DNA from: a virus
Taxonomy: Duplodnaviria > Heunggongvirae > Uroviricota > Caudoviricetes
Reading direction: 5' to 3' (one strand)
IMG/VR virus record: IMGVR_UViG_2541047931_000012
Length of the DNA stretch: 45,439 nt
Part shown: in pieces, positions 28,607-36,749 of the stretch
Layout: each line of letters begins with the position of its first letter
Position numbering within the stretch: position 1 is the first letter of the stretch
Program-made: the position numbers and the translations under genes
The notes under the pieces: generated by a model
Told to the model about the DNA's origin: nothing
The model's database searches: none
What the model saw: the letters and a program-made list of their open reading frames with translations, nothing else

Positions 28607-29221
28607 CTAACGTTGTTTAATAACATTCTGACGCAAATGTGGCAATACTCGACTCCACTTATCATCCTGCCACGGCTGGAATTTTACATGTGCCGTTTCT
28701 CTGGCGAGGATTGCTCGCGCTCTGGTGAGTATCTGGGGATATTCTTGCTCGATGGAAGTGAAGCGACCAGCTTCACGATGCTCCGCAACCTGAAGAAGAG
28801 GAGTAACGTTCTGGCAGGCGGTTAACATCGCATCCCCAGCTCGCCATAACCAAGCAAGTGTGCAAAGTTCGTTATCAGTGAATTGTTTTGTGATCGGGGA
28901 TTGTTGAACTTCTCGATCGAGAATATCCAGAACCCAGCGGCGGAACTCTTTGGCTACAGGAGTTCGTGCAAACATGGCGATCAAATGGGCTCCGCGAAGG
29001 CTAAATACTCGAGACTCCTGCATTCCACGAGGGGTGGTCACTTTGACCACCCTTGTCATCATATCTGTAAATTCATCTGAGTGACGAGAGTAAATGCGCT
29101 GAACTGCTTTATCGTCCGCATATTCCAGAGCTAAACCAACTTCAGTGGCAGTAAGCCAAATTCTGTTATTGTGGCAAATTGGGGTAAACGTCGTTTTGTG
29201 GAATGCTAATTGAGTAGTCAT
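28607..29221 (-). CDS. Bro-N domain protein (putative antirepressor)
   Basis: 204-aa ORF whose N-terminus (AFHKTTFTPICHNNRIWLTATEVGLALEYADDKAVQRIYSRHSDEF) fits Bro-N. Confidence 0.55.
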   Translation of the reverse strand: MTTQLAFHKTTFTPICHNNRIWLTATEVGLALEYADDKAVQRIYSRHSDEFTDMMTRVVKVTTPRGMQESRVFSLRGAHLIAMFARTPVAKEFRRWVLDILDREVQQSPITKQFTDNELCTLAWLWRAGDAMLTACQNVTPLLQVAEHREAGRFTSIEQEYPQILTRARAILARETAHVKFQPWQDDKWSRVLPHLRQNVIKQR

Positions 29222-29377
29222 AGTTTCACCTCATCAGGTTAACCATCACCACCAACGACGCCAATCGACTGGTGGTGAACTGTGCAAGGTTGGCGTAACC
29301 GGCTACTCAAATCCGGCGCTCCCGAAGAAGCCCTCACACAGCCCACCATAATTTGGGCGTAGCCGTGCTTAGCGCAT

Positions 29378-29398
29378 AAAAAAACCGCTTAACGCGGT
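29378..29398 (-). terminator. Rho-independent terminator upstream of the Bro-N gene
   Basis: Minus strand reads accgcgttaagcggt + ttttttt. Confidence 0.6.
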
Positions 29399-29484
29399 AT
29401 GCGTTGAGTAGTATTCCGGGACGCCAATCCCGTGTGCCGATTTTGCGGCAACGCACAGAATATATCCCCAGATAAATCATGTCG

Positions 29485-29574
29485 TCAACCCCAGTAAATG
29501 GACACCATGATGATCACAGCCATAGCTGCTACAACAGTTACAACTACCTCAGGCCAAAACATAACGATTTCCAT
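29485..29574 (-). CDS. Candidate small hydrophobic peptide (~25-29 aa)
   Basis: Minus strand M(EIV)MFWPEVVVTVVAAMAVIIMVSIYWG directly downstream of the copy-2 terminator; weak RBS. Confidence 0.25.
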   Translation of the reverse strand: MEIVMFWPEVVVTVVAAMAVIIMVSIYWG

Positions 29575-29640
29575 ATCACCTTTAGCCGCCAGACGAATAG
29601 AGACTCCCAATTCTGGCTGTCGAAGTAAAACACCGAATGT

Positions 29641-29671
29641 AAAAAATCGTAGGTGCATTTCTGCATCTGTG
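29641..29671 (-). terminator. Rho-independent terminator; copy 2 of the duplicated element
   Basis: Minus strand reads cacagatgcagaaatgcacctacga + tttttt, near-identical to the hairpin at 28159-28189. Confidence 0.55.
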
Positions 29672-29832
29672 AATGGAGAAGATAGGTTGGATTGTATGTG
29701 CGCATAAACGTCCCCGTTTAGCGCAGAAGTCACCGGAGTTGTTCAGGCTCCGGCTTATTAATATTGCCTACTTACAATTAATTTTTCAACTGTTAGAAAC
29801 TTATAATTAGCTGTCTCTTTGTAACTATCAAT

Positions 29833-31728
29833 TTAATTATTTTTCTTTAACTTGAAATTTCTTCCCATTGCTAGTGTTCTTCGAAGATTCGAATCATAAG
29901 CTGGTTGATAATATCTATCATAAAAATCCTTAATTGTCTGATGGTAAGTATCCAGCATCAAACCATAAAACCCCATGACCTTAAGATAATCCACCAAGGG
30001 AAATAAATAATCATCAGTCTGAACATCAGTATCAATATTATTTTTTTGTTTTTTAACTTCAAATTTGTATAAGTTTAACTCACCCTTATCCATCGTGCAT
30101 GAAAAAAGGTCGTCAAAAATCAAATCAATTTTTGTCATAGGAACTCGTTCTTTTCCAGACATTATAGGTAGAATATCAATACCTAAGAGCGAACCTAATA
30201 CAAAGTCGTAATGAAGCGAAATCACTGAGTCATTCGATGTCGAGTTGCCTTTGATAAATACTCTACTTAGTGCCGAGTCAAAAACATTCTCAACTCTCTC
30301 TCTCGTCATGTTTGCGACATCTACAACCCCCATATCACGAGAAGCTTTTATTGTGATTTCATCTATAAATGCTTTGGAATCTAGTGAATGTAAAAACAAC
30401 ATGAAGTTATCTAACTGTTCAGAGCATTTAATAGCCACCATAAGATTTTCGTATATATCTTTTTTATACTCAATCGGTAAATTTGCTACCGCAAAAGCAG
30501 CATAAAATTCTTGCACTGATTTATGCAGAAAAACATACCTATTATTTCCCTCAGGTTGGATAAGGCAAGTTATCTCAATAAGATCATCTATAAAGTTTGA
30601 TGCATCTTCTTTAAGATAACCTTCTGTTTCAATAGCATCTTCAGCATATCTAAGCAACTCCTCTCCCCAAAACTCAAATTTCTCCTCAATCAGTGCGTTA
30701 TAGCAAATAGCTGAAAAACACAATTTAGCTTTTTCACCAATAATGTTTGATTTTTTCTCGCGCGTATATACTTTTATTTTATCATGCCTTGCATATAAGG
30801 TGTCAAAGAGGCTTCGATAAAACTCTATTATATTATTTGGAATATCATTCATATAAGGATAACAATAATACAAAAGAGTAACTAAAATTGGATTGCAAAT
30901 AGTTCCCTCAAGTTCTTCTTTATCACATAGTAAATCCGCCAAGACTTTAAACGAGGCATCACTACTTGAGAATCTGTCATTTTTCGATAAAGAATGAAGA
31001 ATACAAATCTTATCAGAAATATTTAGCTTATCTATAAAAATATTATACACATCAGTAGTATAACATATATCTGTATTTGGTCTCGTTGTTGCGATAATTG
31101 GTGTGTTAAAATGATAATGAATGTTTTTTATTTCATTCATCATCATAGTTCGCTCTTCATGTTTAACCTCATCAAATCCATCCAACATTAAAACGACTCT
31201 TTGGGATTGCAGTAATATTTTCAAGCTATCCTCTGAACACCCCACACCAAATGAATTAAGAATGTCTGCCAGATAAGCAATAATATTTGCATTCTTCACC
31301 CTTCTTAATTCAATAAAAAAAGGCATCCGTTCTGATTTTTTTATTTCCTCGCTAAACAACTTGCGTAAAATAGTACTTTTCCCTTGCCCCGCTATACCGA
31401 CTATATTTACAATACCATGAAATGGTAAAGTGACCCCATCTTTTATAACGACCTTGTCTTTATTAGATGCCACCTCAACAGTTAACGGATAATAAATATC
31501 ATCTAAAAAAATATCATAATCAGCGTTGTGCAAAGTTCTCATTTTCAGAGATGGTAGCACATGCTTTCTTAAATAATTTTCTCTTCCGAGGGGATCATTT
31601 AATTGTTCGAGTATAACCTTGCCTTCATCTAGGTCCCTAGCCCAAGGTTTAGAGAGCAATACTTCTGTTATTTTTTCCGCAGCTTTTCCTACTGTGCTAT
31701 TAATAATAGTCGCAAGAAACTCATCCAT
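29833..31728 (-). CDS. NACHT-type STAND P-loop NTPase, candidate bacterial NLR-like anti-phage protein
   Basis: Walker A GIAGQGKST, NACHT-style Walker B VVLMLDGFDEV and IIATTRP motif; short N-terminal domain and ~300-aa C-terminal region; AT-rich. The likely start is ATG at 31728 (MDEFLATI..., RBS ggtga). Confidence 0.7.
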   Translation of the reverse strand: MDEFLATIINSTVGKAAEKITEVLLSKPWARDLDEGKVILEQLNDPLGRENYLRKHVLPSLKMRTLHNADYDIFLDDIYYPLTVEVASNKDKVVIKDGVTLPFHGIVNIVGIAGQGKSTILRKLFSEEIKKSERMPFFIELRRVKNANIIAYLADILNSFGVGCSEDSLKILLQSQRVVLMLDGFDEVKHEERTMMMNEIKNIHYHFNTPIIATTRPNTDICYTTDVYNIFIDKLNISDKICILHSLSKNDRFSSSDASFKVLADLLCDKEELEGTICNPILVTLLYYCYPYMNDIPNNIIEFYRSLFDTLYARHDKIKVYTREKKSNIIGEKAKLCFSAICYNALIEEKFEFWGEELLRYAEDAIETEGYLKEDASNFIDDLIEITCLIQPEGNNRYVFLHKSVQEFYAAFAVANLPIEYKKDIYENLMVAIKCSEQLDNFMLFLHSLDSKAFIDEITIKASRDMGVVDVANMTRERVENVFDSALSRVFIKGNSTSNDSVISLHYDFVLGSLLGIDILPIMSGKERVPMTKIDLIFDDLFSCTMDKGELNLYKFEVKKQKNNIDTDVQTDDYLFPLVDYLKVMGFYGLMLDTYHQTIKDFYDRYYQPAYDSNLRRTLAMGRNFKLKKNN

Positions 31729-31763
31729 TTTTTCACCACATTCATTAACCAATACGTGGTGCA

Positions 31764-31792
31764 TTCTTACAAGACTCAGTAACAATTGTCAA
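31764..31792 (-). promoter_or_regulatory. Candidate promoter for the NACHT gene (TTGACA - 17 nt - TAAGAA)
   Basis: Minus-strand perfect -35 ttgaca (plus 31787-31792) with a weak -10. Confidence 0.35.
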
Positions 31793-32116
31793 TCATAGGT
31801 TTTCGCATGATTGCAAAACGCCATAAACAATTGTAGCACCATAATTTTAAACACTATATAATATACAACCTTCCTACAAGCATTCAGTACATCGCTTAAT
31901 CACAGGGCTTGAATATATAGTAAGGAATCGATATTAATCACCTCATCTACTTTAAACATCTTACACACCTATAATTTATAATAGTCAACACGAGGTCATC
32001 ATATTAAACATGCAATTACAAACATTCATTTTTATATAAATTTTCATGATTTAACCGTAGAGCGACGGTAATAAATTTCATATACAAGGATTTAAGCTCC
32101 CATACGTTTTCTATTA

Positions 32117-32296
32117 TTAAAAATAACATACCGTTCGCCAGACCTTACCATCAATGACCAGGATTCCTGCCCGCGCCATTTTTGCCGCAGCCTGATTTAT
32201 GCTGGTTAATGTCACACCTGTTGTCGCAGCAACGTCCGGCGCACAGAAGCTCTTGTGCGTCCCCAGGTAATGAATAATTGCTTCTTTTCCCGTCAT
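32117..32296 (-). pseudogene. ren: Truncated ren (59 codons versus ~96 in lambda)
   Basis: MTGKEAIIHYLGTHKSFCAPDVAATTGVTLTSINQAAAKMARAGILVIDGKVWRTV then CYF-stop; the lambda Ren match (from memory) ends where the AT-rich island begins. Confidence 0.6.
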
Positions 32297-32994
32297 ACAC
32301 TGGCTCCTTTCAGTCCGAACTTAGCTTTGATTTCTGCAATCTTCGCCAGAGCCTGTGCACGATTTAGAGGTCTACCGCCCATGACAGGAAGTTGTTTTAC
32401 TGGTTCAGGTATAGCCTCACCACGGTTAATTCTCGCAGTCATATGGGCAAGTTCATCGGCAGCCTTGCGCCGTAATTCCGAGTCAGTCAACGCATTAGCC
32501 CGCATGTTCTGATACAGGTTGGTAACCAGCCAGTAGTGCGCGTTTGATTTCCACGGATAAGACTCTGCGTCCGGATACAGGCCACGCTTCCGGCAATACT
32601 CGTAAACCATATCAACCAGCTCGCTGGCGTTTGGCAGTCCGGCGGTAACGGATGCTTCTTCCCGGCACCAGGCGACAAACTGCCCGGGTGATGGCAGGAA
32701 TGGTCGATTCTGCCGACGGGCTACGCGCATTCCTGCGTTAACCTGTTCCATTGTGGTGATCCCGTTTTCCCGGAAAGCCAGAACCCACTGGCGGCGGATT
32801 TCGTTCAGTTCGTTCTGGTCCCGGTTAGCCAGGCTCGCCGGGAAAGTTGCCAGTAACTGGCTGAACACACCGTTGATGATCCGCGCTACCTGCTGTACCT
32901 GCGGCTTTTCGTCGTACTGTTCCGGCATGTTGTTGGCGATCCGGCGCATCTGCTCACGGTCAAAGTTAACCATCTGTGCGGCGATGTTTTTCAT
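32293..32994 (-). CDS. P: Replication protein P (helicase loader)
   Basis: 233-aa ORF MKNIAAQMVNFDREQMRRIANNMPEQYDEKPQVQQVARIINGVFSQLLATFPASLANRDQNE..., near-identical to lambda P from memory. Confidence 0.9.
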   Translation of the reverse strand: MKNIAAQMVNFDREQMRRIANNMPEQYDEKPQVQQVARIINGVFSQLLATFPASLANRDQNELNEIRRQWVLAFRENGITTMEQVNAGMRVARRQNRPFLPSPGQFVAWCREEASVTAGLPNASELVDMVYEYCRKRGLYPDAESYPWKSNAHYWLVTNLYQNMRANALTDSELRRKAADELAHMTARINRGEAIPEPVKQLPVMGGRPLNRAQALAKIAEIKAKFGLKGASV

Positions 32995-33920
32995 AAATCC
33001 ACCCCATAAATCCAGTCAGTGTTTGTCAGGTCGAGTTTTGATTTTCCGGCTGTCACGCCAGCCTGTTGCTTGTTACGGTTGATTTCGAGCTGGGTCCACT
33101 TGTCGCGGAGTTTGGCCGGACTCAGCACGTTACCGGACCAGAAGTTGTCCTGGCATGCCCAGCGGAACAGTACACACATGTCGCGATGGTTACGTCCGTC
33201 ACGTTCACGCATCAGGCGGATATCGTTAGCCCACCCTGCAAAATTCGGTTTTCTGGCTGATGGCGCGATGGTCTTCACCATGTCAAACATCCACTCTGCG
33301 GCGGTCAGGTCTTCTGCTGTCCCCCACTTGCTGCCGCTCTGAATTGCAGCATCCGGTTTCACCACAGGAAGATCGTTTTCTGGCTGGTCAGAGGATTCGC
33401 CAGAATTCTCGGACGAAAAAGGTTTTATATTGTCTTTTGTTAGTTTGTCTTTTGTGTTTACCTGATTCGGGTAAACGTCTTTACCTGATTTGGGTAAACT
33501 TTTCTTACCTGATTCAGGTAAATTTACCTCTTTCAGGTAAACTTTATTTTTCTTACCTGATTCGGGTAATGTTGACCATTCACTGACCACATTATTAATG
33601 CCGATATTCCGCCCGCTCTGAATAAAAATCCCACGCTTTACCAGAACACTTTTTGCAGCAGAACACTTGTGCGGCAATATCCCGGTCAACTCGGAAAGTT
33701 GCTCGTTGCTCACCCAATCCAGTTTTTTATTAAAGCCATATGTTTTGCGCATGACAGCCAGGAAGACCAGAAGCTGGTGCTGTGTTAATCCGGCCAGCAT
33801 CACAGCTTCCAGCAACTCATTTGCAATGCGCGTATAACCATCATCGAGATCTGCCACGCGCGGCTCCTTTTGTGCCGCATCCGGCACTGGAAAATTGAAT
33901 ATCTCAGCAGTGTTTGCCAT
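32991..33920 (-). CDS. O: Replication initiator O
   Basis: Lambda-O-like N-terminus from MANTAEIFNF...VADLDDGYTRIANELLEA (RBS gggagg); iterons lie inside the gene; the C-terminus is lambda-like. Confidence 0.85.
   Translation of the reverse strand: MANTAEIFNFPVPDAAQKEPRVADLDDGYTRIANELLEAVMLAGLTQHQLLVFLAVMRKTYGFNKKLDWVSNEQLSELTGILPHKCSAAKSVLVKRGIFIQSGRNIGINNVVSEWSTLPESGKKNKVYLKEVNLPESGKKSLPKSGKDVYPNQVNTKDKLTKDNIKPFSSENSGESSDQPENDLPVVKPDAAIQSGSKWGTAEDLTAAEWMFDMVKTIAPSARKPNFAGWANDIRLMRERDGRNHRDMCVLFRWACQDNFWSGNVLSPAKLRDKWTQLEINRNKQQAGVTAGKSKLDLTNTDWIYGVDL
33458..33570. repeat. Replication origin iterons: five ~18-bp repeats TTACCTGATTYRGGTAAA, with an adjacent AT-rich tract at 33421-33457
   Basis: Repeats at 33458-33475, 33481-33498, 33505-33522, 33524-33541 and 33553-33569; each is an inverted repeat TTACC...GGTAA, inside O. 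Confidence 0.8.
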
Positions 33921-34006
33921 AATTCCTCCCGCAATGAGTGTGTTACGATTTGCACCTGAAAGTCGGTTCTGTTCCAGCAGACCGGCTTTCGCCATTTCTG
34001 AACCTG

Positions 34007-34552
34007 TCATATCGCCCCCAGCATGGTAGTAACCATCGCCATCAATGGACCAGCCAGATCTGGGTCCACACGAAACATCGACACAATACCTTCACTAATT
34101 TCCTTCAGTTTCTGGTGGCGTGGTGCGTTGAGAATGACAGTCTGTTTTGCCTCACTGAGTTCCTTTTCCATTTCAGCCAACCTAGCCATGAAGCTATCCT
34201 GCTCAACCAGGTAACCGCGATATTCCAGCGGTAGTACCGCCAGAATTGCCGGGGTCAGTTCACGCACGTTATTTCGGTATTTTTCAGAATCGAATTTGTT
34301 ATCGAGGAAGCGGAACAGCTTCTGGCGTGCACGGCTGACATCATCAGGGAAATCGATGGTGCCGCCGCCCTGCTCCCGATACTCATTCACAATGAGTGCG
34401 GCAACAACATCCTGATTATCTGCAGCCGACCAGGCGCGAACGGCATCACGGATTTTTTCGTGGCCTGGCGCCTGTTTTGTTTGAGAACGATTTATCACCG
34501 CAGTCGGGCTAAATCCGCTAGTCTGTTGGTATGTAAGTGGTTGCATAGTCAT
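34007..34552 (-). CDS. YdaT-like protein, occupying the cII position
   Basis: 181-aa ORF with EYREQGGG and RELTPAILAVLPLEYRGYL resembling Rac YdaT from memory. Confidence 0.55.
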   Translation of the reverse strand: MTMQPLTYQQTSGFSPTAVINRSQTKQAPGHEKIRDAVRAWSAADNQDVVAALIVNEYREQGGGTIDFPDDVSRARQKLFRFLDNKFDSEKYRNNVRELTPAILAVLPLEYRGYLVEQDSFMARLAEMEKELSEAKQTVILNAPRHQKLKEISEGIVSMFRVDPDLAGPLMAMVTTMLGAI

Positions 34553-34878: not shown

Positions 34879-34905
34879 TTGACCATCAATACGCAAGCGT
34901 ATAAA
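34879..34905 (+). promoter_or_regulatory. PRM-like promoter (TTGACC - 15 nt - TATAAA) giving a near-leaderless cI transcript
   Basis: The -10 ends 9 nt before the cI ATG at 34915 and there is no Shine-Dalgarno. Confidence 0.35.
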
Positions 34906-34914
34906 TTAAAACTT

Positions 34915-35607
34915 ATGAAAAAAGAAACTCTTGCTGATCGCTTAAACCTAGCGATGGAACAATCTGGAATGTCTCAAGGCGCTCTTGCAAAGGCGTCTGG
35001 CGTAGCTCAACCCACAATCTGGAGACTGACAAGCGGCAACGCTCGCGGCTCAACAAAAATTGTTGAAATAGCTAATGCATTGGGTGTTCGAACAGAATGG
35101 CTCTCATCAGGCATAGGCCCGATGAGAAATGACGGTCAACAATCAGGGAAGCCTGCTGTCAGCCATTCAAAATACTTCAAAATTGACGTTCTTGATATAG
35201 AAGTCAGTGCCGGGCCGGGAGTCATCAACCGTGAGTTTGTAGAAGTTCTACGCTCGGTTGAGTACTCGTTTGACGATGCTCGTCACATGTTCGATGGTAG
35301 GAAGGCAGAAAATATCCGCATCATTAACGTACGCGGTGACAGCATGTCAGGAACGATCGAACCAGGTGATCTTCTGTTCGTTGATATCACGGTTAAATCT
35401 TTCGACGGTGATGGTATCTATGCGTTTCTGTATGACGACACAGCCCATGTAAAGCGCCTGCAAATGATGAAGGATAAGCTGCTAGTTATCTCTGATAACA
35501 AGAGCTACTCACCGTGGGACCCGATCGAGAAAGACGAGATGAACCGGGTATTCATCTTCGGGAAAGTCATCGGAAGCATGCCGCAGACGTATAGGAAGCA
35601 TGGGTAG
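34915..35607 (+). CDS. cI: CI-like repressor (HTH plus S24 LexA-type autopeptidase domain)
   Basis: HTH MSQGALAKASGVAQPTIWRL and S24 motifs VRGDSMSGTI ... HVKRL; start taken at ATG 34915 (the listed ORF begins at TTG 34879). Confidence 0.8.
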   Translation: MKKETLADRLNLAMEQSGMSQGALAKASGVAQPTIWRLTSGNARGSTKIVEIANALGVRTEWLSSGIGPMRNDGQQSGKPAVSHSKYFKIDVLDIEVSAGPGVINREFVEVLRSVEYSFDDARHMFDGRKAENIRIINVRGDSMSGTIEPGDLLFVDITVKSFDGDGIYAFLYDDTAHVKRLQMMKDKLLVISDNKSYSPWDPIEKDEMNRVFIFGKVIGSMPQTYRKHG

Positions 35608-35718: not shown

Positions 35719-35733
35719 TTACCATAATGGTAA
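35719..35733. promoter_or_regulatory. Perfect palindrome TTACCAT-A-ATGGTAA overlapping the first ATG of the toxin gene; candidate antitoxin operator
   Basis: Read directly at 35719-35733. Confidence 0.4.
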
Positions 35734-36137
35734 CAAGTATGATTCTTAGCAGATATGTGGGAACTCCTCCCCGTGATGGCGAGGACAGAAAGATTCAAGG
35801 TGGTCCGCTTTATTTAGATATCATTGATTTGATTGATGAATGTGACACACTGCCTTGGACTAGACGGTGTATCAGGGATGTTCAATCGCTTTCTTTAGAT
35901 GCAGATGACATCAAATCTATGGTGATAAAAGCAGTCACTAAAGGGAGATTTCTAGGTTCAGAATGGTGTCAAGGCAGTAAACCAGGTGTATGGGCAGCTT
36001 GTGATGCTTATAGCTTTGAGCACTCATTTTGGTGCCAAGCTATGCATAAAGAACTTAATAACGAGTTCTACATTAAATTTTTTGTAAACATTACTGGCAA
36101 TGTAGTGCTTACAGTATCTCTTCATCTCTCTAATTGA
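35727..36137 (+). CDS. MqsR-like toxin of a toxin-antitoxin-chaperone operon
   Basis: C-terminal region (...DAYSFEHSFW...EFYIKFFVNITGNVVLTVSLH) resembles MqsR (...YLKITVIHDVLIVSF) from memory; toxin-first order as in mqsRA. The start could be 35727 or 35739. Confidence 0.5.
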   Translation: MVTSMILSRYVGTPPRDGEDRKIQGGPLYLDIIDLIDECDTLPWTRRCIRDVQSLSLDADDIKSMVIKAVTKGRFLGSEWCQGSKPGVWAACDAYSFEHSFWCQAMHKELNNEFYIKFFVNITGNVVLTVSLHLSN

Positions 36138-36161
36138 GTGATGATAAATGAGGATTTTTAT

Positions 36162-36749
36162 ATGAGAAACAACAACATATGTCCAGTTTGTGGTGTAGGT
36201 CATCTCACCGTGGAGATGGAGTATGATGATGTTACTTATAAAGGGGAAACAAAAAATCTCCCAATAAGGTTTTCTGTGTGTGATCAATGTGGTTCGGAAA
36301 CTGCCACACCAGTCGATTTACGAGAAAACAAACGAATTTTCAATGAATACAAAAAGTCTATCGATGGACTTTTAACAGGAAAAGAATTAAAAAAAATTAG
36401 AACTGAAGTATGGATGATAACCCAGCAAAAGGCATCCTCTATATTTGGTGGGGGGCCTAAGGCATTTTCCAAGTATGAATCTGATGATGTCATTCAATCA
36501 GAAGCAATGGATAAACTGATGCGTTTAGCAGCAGAAGTTCCTGATGCATTCAAAAGGTTACGGGAATTATCTGGCGAAATCAAAGTTGAAAGAACAGTCT
36601 CATCATCTAAATCTTTACCTATATGGAAATCTGAAGCAAAAGCACAATTTGAAAACGATGATCAGGGATTTGACAGCAAATCACCAGCCCAAACAAAAAT
36701 GAATCAAACATCAATAAAGATAAAAACTGTTGCTAAGCGGGTAGCATGA
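36162..36749 (+). CDS. MqsA-like antitoxin (zinc ribbon plus HTH) with a ~70-aa C-terminal extension
   Basis: CPVCGVGHL...CDQCGSE zinc ribbon and SIFGGGPKAFSKYE matching the MqsA EIFGGGVNAFSRYE motif; RBS gagga before ATG 36162. Confidence 0.7.
   Translation: MRNNNICPVCGVGHLTVEMEYDDVTYKGETKNLPIRFSVCDQCGSETATPVDLRENKRIFNEYKKSIDGLLTGKELKKIRTEVWMITQQKASSIFGGGPKAFSKYESDDVIQSEAMDKLMRLAAEVPDAFKRLRELSGEIKVERTVSSSKSLPIWKSEAKAQFENDDQGFDSKSPAQTKMNQTSIKIKTVAKRVA

Follow-up and report, generated by a model that had tools for sequence, protein, structure and literature searches.

The subject of this analysis is a compact, AT-rich block of DNA in a lambdoid prophage, together with the one long gene that the block carries. 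The prophage is IMG/VR virus record IMGVR_UViG_2541047931_000012, a stretch of 45,439 nucleotides (nt), called here the window, whose genes lie mostly on the minus strand. The block, or cassette, spans positions 29753..32123 (2,371 bp) and sits in the slot between ren and ninB. It is 32.2% GC, against 48.5% and 49.5% in its flanks and 50.5% in the window as a whole. Measured over successive 300-nt segments, the GC fraction is 0.29-0.37 across ~29750-32150 and 0.45-0.58 on either side, and the cassette is the lowest-GC 2.4-kb stretch of the window. The same borders emerge from comparison with other lambdoid prophages. Here, homology found by BLASTN ends at 29752 and restarts at 32124-32132, precisely where the composition switches.

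On the replication side, the cassette cuts into ren. What is left of that gene (32117..32296, minus strand) encodes 59 amino acids, versus 96 in lambda Ren. This remnant matches residues 1-58 of lambda Ren at 88% identity. An alignment of six prophages supports the truncation, whose junction lies after codon 57. The reading frame then runs into cassette sequence, where it acquires the foreign codons C-Y-F-stop, and the last 37-38 residues of Ren are missing. RefSeq flags this copy of ren as a pseudogene (“incomplete; missing C-terminus”). The cassette replaces the 3' third of ren, and the C-terminus of Ren was lost on acquisition.

The only open reading frame (ORF) in the cassette longer than 59 amino acids lies at 29833..31728 on the minus strand and encodes 631 amino acids plus a stop from an ATG start (MDEF...). 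At the composition of the cassette, 631 codons free of stops would arise by chance with a probability of ~7e-25. A protein identical to the product is held in RefSeq as WP_024239936.1, under the label “NACHT domain-containing protein”. Gene callers disagree over its start, giving proteins of 631, 643 or 650 amino acids. The shortest is favored because the N-terminus that typifies the family, M-D/E-x-hydrophobic, aligns there across 57 homologues, and because the ATG further upstream falls within the -10 hexamer of a promoter-like site. The 643- and 650-residue starts were set aside on both grounds.

That site is a candidate sigma-70 promoter (31763..31792, minus strand) built from TTGACA (31792-31787), an 18-nt spacer and TGt-AAGAAT (31768-31763). 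It received the top score in a scan of the region for promoters, with 10 of 12 matches and the TG of an extended -10. A GGTGA (31733-31737) stands 4 bases 5' of the ATG, and GGTG before the start codon is the only part common to the upstream regions of homologues that are 61-67% identical. Between the stop of the truncated ren and the promoter lies an AT-rich, non-coding leader (31793..32116, minus strand) that has no Rfam match; the whole segment from 31729 to 32123 is 30.4% GC, and its ORFs are all 37 amino acids or shorter. The cassette can thus be described as a single-gene system with its own predicted promoter, a match to consensus. Its gene is co-directional with transcription from PR and, to judge from the map of lambda, would also be read during lytic growth.

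The protein is a genuine NACHT-type STAND nucleoside triphosphatase (NTPase). Pfam NACHT (PF05729) matches with 43.9 bits against a cut-off of 26.7, and is the only family to exceed its own threshold. The NACHT module takes in helical and winged-helix parts, occupies residues 61-450 (30379..31548, minus strand) and carries the motif LKMRTLH ahead of the nucleotide-binding domain. On the same strand, Walker A is GIAGQGKST (residues 111-119, 31372-31398), Walker B is LMLDGFDEV (residues 180-188, 31165-31191), sensor 1 is TTRP (residues 214-217, 31078-31089), and the winged-helix motif is FLHKSVQEF (30505-30531), which contains H402. Across the 57 homologues, K117, D183, D186, E187, R216 and H402 are invariant. 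The D183-G-F-D-E187 of Walker B fits the signature D[GAS]hDE, one of those by which NACHT proteins have been defined (Kibby et al., bioRxiv 10.1101/2022.07.19.500537).

Structure prediction leads to the same family. An AlphaFold2 model built from the alignment of homologues (mean predicted local distance difference test score 88.5, predicted template modelling (TM) score 0.86) was compared with the PDB using Foldseek. The top match is autoinhibited NLRC4 (E 7.5e-13), followed by NOD2, NAIP and NLRP3, and the best 38 of the 84 matches at E<=0.001 are all animal NLRs (nucleotide-binding, leucine-rich-repeat receptors), over ~420-550 alignment columns. ORC/Cdc6, CED-4 and Avs4 rank far below; Avs4 stands at rank 42 with a TM score of 0.22. 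NLRC4 and NAIP were likewise among the top matches reported for the bacterial protein bNACHT11 (Robbins et al., bioRxiv 10.1101/2024.12.17.629029). With the animal NLRs, the window protein shares the NACHT fold with its nucleotide-binding, helical and winged-helix domains (TM score ~0.5 on the query with autoinhibited NLRC4), as well as F-L-H-x-S-x-Q-E-F and D-G-F-D-E. The two differ in that identity is only 13-17%, and in that the window protein has no leucine-rich repeats, CARD or PYD; in their place are a small alpha/beta sensor and, as effector, an extension of ~60 residues.

One might, of course, suppose that these motifs mark nothing more than a generic AAA+ or P-loop ATPase, and weak, sub-threshold Pfam matches to AAA_22, AAA_16, NB-ARC and nSTAND families do occur. 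This alternative is refuted. NACHT alone passes its Pfam cut-off, D[GAS]hDE and the winged-helix histidine are invariant, and the first 38 structural matches are NLRs. The STAND logic of a sensor, an oligomerizing NTPase and an effector that ends in abortive infection is also found in Avs/AVAST proteins. These, however, fall outside the NACHT subclade and combine large repeat sensors with enzymatic effectors, whereas the window protein has no repeats, no enzymatic domain, and no match above noise to any PADLOC Avs model.

Thus, much of a preliminary description of this DNA, made from the letters alone, has held. It had proposed an AT-rich island of ~2.3 kb, a ren gene cut after ~56 codons, one ORF of ~631 amino acids with Walker A, Walker B and TTRP motifs, a candidate promoter with a perfect TTGACA, and NACHT/STAND identity. 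Composition and homology breaks agree on the island, the junction in ren lies after codon 57, the ORF and its motifs are where they were reported, the promoter is the best such site in the region by its match to consensus, and profile, motifs and structural matches concur on the family.

Within the bacterial NACHT proteins, the nearest relatives are those of a single clade. The proteins listed in Table S2 of Kibby et al. (bioRxiv 10.1101/2022.07.19.500537) served as references, and identity was computed along the first ~380-400 residues, which are collinear. The window protein is 40.7% identical to bNACHT11, 37.7% to bNACHT01, 37.0% to bNACHT02, 34.8% to bNACHT12 and 31.4% to bNACHT23. These five belong to the bNACHT01-like clade 14 of that study, and all five protect E. 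coli from phages. Outside the clade, identity is 24% to bNACHT04, and bNACHT25 matches at the P-loop only (27% over 92 residues). By identity to these proteins, the window protein groups with clade 14. Kibby et al. describe it as the largest of the clades whose C-terminal extensions are short, and as the sole clade that has no recognizable fused effector domain; in bNACHT01, mutants of the Walker A lysine lose defence.

Closest of the five is bNACHT11 (Klebsiella pneumoniae, WP_114260439.1). The full-length sequence was recovered from a Klebsiella plasmid, and its published residues K115, R214, S518, I519, F522, I549 and I553 all match. Over residues 1-452 it is 39% identical to the window protein, with which it is collinear (639 versus 631 amino acids). 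K117 and R216 of the window protein align with K115 and R214 of bNACHT11, the residues that contact ATP-Mg (Robbins et al., bioRxiv 10.1101/2024.12.17.629029). The two proteins are also alike in having a short N-terminal extension that starts M-D, a C-terminal domain free of repeats and a hydrophobic C-terminal tail, and in being single-gene systems on mobile elements. The elements differ: bNACHT11 is on a 4.2-kb ColE1-type plasmid, whereas the window gene is on a lambdoid prophage. That plasmid is pRYC492-4 (NZ_CP127841.1), which is non-mobilizable; the gene for bNACHT11 runs across the record's origin and for that reason is missing from the gene table of PLSDB. Many plasmids of E. coli and Shigella carry homologues ~76% identical to bNACHT11.

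The C-terminal part of the window protein appears to be its sensor. Residues 451-631 (29836..30378, minus strand) are modelled as an alpha/beta domain of ~180 amino acids without repeats, ending in the conserved tail N-F-K-L. This is smaller than the ~300-residue C-terminal region of the preliminary description; the NACHT module runs to about residue 450. That description had also found the sensor and effector impossible to assign and had wondered about an uncharacterized variant. The protein instead falls, by identity, in a clade that has been characterized, with a SNaCT-type domain as its likely sensor and the N-terminal extension as its presumed effector.

The case for the sensor begins with divergence. 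Column entropy is 2.76 bits in the C-terminal domain against 1.57 bits for residues 1-450. Homologues that are 61-67% identical overall keep 71-76% identity in the NACHT part and only 38-48% in the C-terminal domain. The E. coli copies that were compared differ from one another by 4-6 nucleotides in 1,893 and by 2-4 amino acids, while the flanking P/ren DNA is more diverged. The amino-acid differences (K533E, D540G, M585R and F587V) are all in the C-terminal domain. Few as they are, they point in the direction that diversifying pressure on a sensor would predict.

The second line of evidence is family resemblance. When the domain was aligned by hhalign with the C-termini of relatives that bear Pfam SNaCT1, the match had 96.4% probability (E 1e-9, 171 columns); the SNaCT1-bearing branch includes the best matches of bNACHT01 among the homologues. 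The SNaCT1 model itself (PF22710) does not match the window C-terminus even at E<=10. This failure is not diagnostic, because bNACHT11 fails the model as well; the model covers only part of the clade. More generally, neither the N-terminal part, with residues 1-70, nor the C-terminal part has a Pfam match at E<=10 when taken in isolation. A HMMER search with the domain alone through 1.84 billion representative proteins returned only NACHT proteins of the same family, 618-639 amino acids long, and their fragments, the exceptions being two weak, multi-stretch matches in proteins of 1,235 and 1,868 amino acids (E 2.6e-8 and 7e-8). On this sequence evidence, the C-terminal domain behaves like the SNaCT sensor that was defined for bNACHT01. 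In bNACHT01 and bNACHT12 (from Klebsiella and E. coli, the founders of clade 14 and of SNaCT), as in the window protein, the NACHT module evolves more slowly than the C-terminal domain. The setting of bNACHT01 is different; it lies in a chromosomal defence island beside CBASS, while the window gene is inside a prophage.

At the other end of the protein, residues 1-60 (31549..31728, minus strand) form an extension that starts M-D-E-F and is modelled as four helices (3-9, 12-26, 31-44 and 46-61). Position 2 is D or E in 55 of the 57 family members, and position 4 is hydrophobic. What such an extension might do is suggested by work on bNACHT11 (Robbins et al., bioRxiv 10.1101/2024.12.17.629029). 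There, the SNaCT domain directly binds several unrelated phage proteins, sensing them by beta-augmentation. Assembly into a heptamer requires ATP but not its hydrolysis, and within it the C-terminal seven residues of one protomer dock into the next. Death is plasmolysis-like and requires the N-terminal extension of ~45 residues; the D2A and P3A mutants are inactive. Separately, the N-terminal motif of bNACHT02, bNACHT11 and bNACHT23 has been linked to membrane-targeting helices of the Bell/HeLo type (bioRxiv 10.1101/2024.11.07.622273). By analogy with these mutants, with plasmolysis and with the Bell/HeLo “MEPIS” link, the extension of the window protein is presumed to be its death effector.

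These comparisons lead to a specific proposal, to which we assign a probability of about 0.72. The cassette would be single-gene, anti-phage defence cargo of a lambdoid prophage, and its product a clade-14 relative of the NLRs that kills by a mechanism like that of bNACHT11. In the lysogen, the NACHT protein would be present at a low level as a resting, ADP-bound monomer. Upon infection by another phage, one or more phage proteins would bind the C-terminal domain, and this binding would cause ATP-dependent oligomerization. The clustered N-terminal extensions would then disturb the inner membrane (plasmolysis), and the cell would die before the phage completes its cycle, which is abortive infection. 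Architecture and motifs are read directly from the window; the functional steps are all inferred by homology to bNACHT11 and bNACHT01. The window protein keeps the lysine and the arginine that contact ATP, the acidic residue at position 2, the hydrophobic residue at position 4, and F625 in the tail. This last is a near-invariant aromatic seven residues from the end, in a segment whose alignment with bNACHT11 is unreliable.

Several observations pull the other way. The nearest relative with a known phenotype is only ~40% identical. Position 3 is E, as it is in 6 of the 57 relatives, and not the P that is essential in bNACHT11; a proline at this position is, however, also absent from bNACHT01 and bNACHT12, which are active. 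A search of PADLOC-DB v2.0.0 (the 2023 library) found no match above noise and would not have called the protein; there, as in NCBIfam, the only signal was noise at the P-loop. Other general searches were similarly uninformative, in that PHROGs returned families of unknown function only, and a sequence search of the PDB returned no relative, from a copy that evidently did not contain the cryo-EM (cryo-electron microscopy) structure of bNACHT11.

Two further difficulties concern the sensor, and these bear on how a phage would be detected. The C-terminal domain has no significant similarity to the sensor of bNACHT11 (hhalign probability 0.2%, with 16 of 172 aligned positions identical), and the strand through which bNACHT11 makes its contacts (S518-F522) falls in a segment without a counterpart in the window protein. 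For these reasons, transfer of the bNACHT11 binding interface to the window protein was rejected. Direct binding by beta-augmentation is an extrapolation here because the contact strand has no counterpart, and the trigger of the window sensor cannot be predicted from a domain that has diverged so far from that of bNACHT11.

The missing strand lends something to an alternative in which family and lethal output are the same and sensing is indirect, the C-terminal domain guarding a host factor or a host process that the phage perturbs. A precedent exists within the bacterial NACHT proteins; bNACHT25 is reported to sense phage via the host chaperone DnaJ (PMC12169576). But bNACHT25 has another architecture (752 amino acids, with a large N-terminal domain) and matches the window protein only at the P-loop, and the nearest characterized relative, bNACHT11, binds its phage ligands directly. 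Indirect sensing is accordingly held to be improbable, and direct recognition of phage proteins by the C-terminal domain is kept as the working view of how the proposed defence would be triggered.

Distribution bears on whether the gene is doing anything. Of 5,426 complete E. coli genomes, only 9 carry the cassette, which thus is not part of the common phage backbone; the same truncated-ren junction was found in all four of the cassette-bearing genomes that were inspected. Copies of the cassette are 99.7-99.8% identical across differing prophage backbones. In strain ANT, for example, the cassette directly abuts ninB, and the Q, lysis and terminase modules are different; in others, including that of the window, an antirepressor module stands between cassette and ninB. 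In public assemblies, the cluster that contains the protein counts 382 sequences. At 61-67% identity, homologues take the equivalent position, between the genes for replication and RusA/Q, in metagenomic prophages and in an Enterobacter assembly, and members of the subfamily (at least 50% identical) have all been seen in lambdoid prophages, between replication and nin/Q genes. A tblastn search of 50,697 deposited phage genomes gave four remote matches only (24-25% identity) and no close relative. All known close relatives come from prophages within bacterial assemblies.

This distribution must be weighed against the possibility that the cassette is silent or decaying cargo, a recent, AT-rich arrival that is repressed in the lysogen and contributes nothing at present. 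AT-rich DNA is often silenced in E. coli, and at 32% GC the cassette is a candidate for such silencing. Its promoter is a match to consensus only, unverified and not conserved; the upstream regions of the homologues that are 61-67% identical do not align. The cassette is rare, and one of its nine genomic copies is split by a 1-bp insertion. Set against this, the four copies examined at sequence level have an uninterrupted ORF that varies little or not at all, and seven more are annotated as a single gene. All catalytic residues are kept, the cassette has spread over several backbones with scarcely any change, and the cluster to which its protein belongs is populous. In addition, the few substitutions mostly change the amino acid and keep to the sensor, a pattern that suggests selection and not decay. 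We therefore regard silent cargo as unlikely, slightly more so than indirect sensing. The split copy is that of E. coli 2014C-4135, where the annotation breaks the NACHT gene into two ORFs, of 1,467 and 420 nt, and the matching stretch exceeds the query by a single base, reflecting either a real frameshift or a homopolymer sequencing error; the prophage concerned is at the argU/DLP12 site, beside fimZ.

Position raises one more alternative. The gene stands in the early-right operon between the replication and nin genes, points the same way as PR, and would also be transcribed on induction. It might therefore serve the cycle of the prophage itself, by timing lysis or by killing cells that lose or mis-induce the prophage. 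Yet lambda and most relatives do without the gene and have unrelated cargo at the site, and each tested relative, as the sole gene supplied on a plasmid, acts on heterologous phages. That the gene serves the prophage's cycle is very improbable, and defence against other phages remains the preferred interpretation.

The site itself invites comment. In lambda, ren is followed by 73 bp, with the tR2 hairpin inside, and then by ninB, with no cargo at all. Other lambdoid prophages have, in the same slot, a protein annotated TagO with small ORFs, or an acyltransferase with a lipoprotein, or two hypothetical genes of 255 and 1,419 nt. Among prophages with such other cargo, ren is intact in some and degraded in some. 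The interval from ren to ninB is a variable, exchangeable cargo position in lambdoid prophages. On the Enterobacter prophage contig, the NACHT homologue adjoins genes for a KAP NTPase, a protein kinase and an FRG-domain protein, which suggests a multi-gene defence cluster in the same prophage position. On that contig, the segment 2841-7577, between P and the NACHT homologue, also holds an integrase fragment along with the FRG-domain protein, the protein kinase and the KAP NTPase.

The slot thus resembles the phage defence hotspots of P2 and P4 (Rousset et al., 2022, PMC9122126), “moron” sites where differing cargo, expressed in the lysogen, occupies a fixed place between conserved genes. The difference is that the slot here is the lambdoid ren-ninB junction, and that acquisition removed the 3' third of ren. 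No literature describing this slot as a defence hotspot was found.

How the cassette arrived can be considered from its borders. On the ninB side it is bounded by a conserved linker of 125 bp (29628..29752), in which the hairpin CCGGAG-N9-CTCCGG lies at 29733-29753. A second copy of the linker (28146-28267) lies just upstream of ninB; the two copies (repeat families D1 and D4) are 74% identical, while the copy beside the cassette shares 94% identity with the linker next to ninB in another prophage. A repeat search found neither inverted nor direct repeats flanking the cassette, and no target-site duplication. An origin as a transposon or insertion sequence was rejected, as there are neither terminal inverted repeats nor a target duplication. 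The simplest account is that the cassette was gained by modular exchange, through recombination in the conserved flanks formed by P/ren and the linker.

Several small features accompany the linkers. An 82-amino-acid, GTG-initiated ORF (29485-29733, minus strand) starts in the cassette-side linker; its tail is hydrophobic and resembles a membrane segment. Searches of Pfam and PADLOC gave no match to this ORF, and RefSeq leaves it unannotated. In relatives, the ninB-proximal copy of the linker has annotated short ORFs (32-33 amino acids). The segment between the two copies (28268-29627, minus strand) looks like another exchangeable cassette in the same slot. It includes an antirepressor-like gene with Bro-N/P22_AR_C (28607-29221), and Rfam matches to isrK (29378-29450) and to a C4 antisense RNA (29268-29353) directly upstream of it, a module of the P1 c4-ant / Gifsy isrK type.

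The remainder of the window follows a lambdoid plan. Read along the minus strand, it begins with the integrase (44153-45439) and recombination genes, followed by an S24-type repressor (34879-35607, plus strand), a cro-like gene, the gene for a YdaT-domain protein, and the replication genes O (32991-34010) and P (32293-32994). Beyond P come ren, the NACHT cassette, the antirepressor-like module, ninB, ninE, a DUF1364 gene, rusA and Q, and beyond Q the tRNAs, the lysis genes and the structural genes.

Two other regions deserve mention. Directly downstream of the repressor, in the position of lambda rexAB, are three co-oriented ORFs (35727-37249, plus strand), of 136 amino acids (no Pfam match), 203 amino acids (an MqsA-antitoxin domain, 2e-17) and 167 amino acids (a weak PADLOC match to PD-T4-9_C, 7e-4). 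They may be a second module expressed in the lysogen, for toxin-antitoxin or defence. The late region (23081-26650, minus strand) has the layout of a Shiga toxin (Stx) phage without stx, and leaves no room for toxin genes. Here, Q (26255-26650) is followed by tRNA-Met(cat), tRNA-Arg(tcg) and tRNA-Arg(tct) (25535-25784), by the small RNA STnc100 and the anti-stx2 small RNA AsxR (25195-25459), and, ~150 bp past these RNAs, by a nanS-p-like esterase with DUF1737, SASA and DUF6645 (23081-25042).

Earlier publications already cover the family and its role against phages, as well as the mechanism of one member, and the window protein is not a new kind of system. That prophages encode STAND proteins is cited as established in a 2026 preprint, which points to Brenes and Laub 2025 (Cell Host Microbe 33:1004). 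Neither WP_024239936 nor its subfamily was found in searchable papers or in the supplements of Kibby et al.

What the window adds is a clear case of a bacterial NLR-related defence gene, from an abundant family, carried by a prophage of the lambda type in a defined slot between ren and ninB whose content is exchangeable. Its divergent sensor makes it a convenient test case for what differing SNaCT domains recognize. It serves a second question as well, which is how a suicide sensor encoded by a prophage escapes being triggered by its own phage. At long odds, though somewhat shorter than those given to either indirect sensing or silence, the sensor of the subfamily may suit a class of trigger that would be new for bacterial NLRs. 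For example, it might respond to the early proteins of rival temperate lambdoid phages, with selection acting against a response to the resident prophage. If this were true, the cassette and its truncated ren would travel between prophages as a unit of inter-phage warfare.

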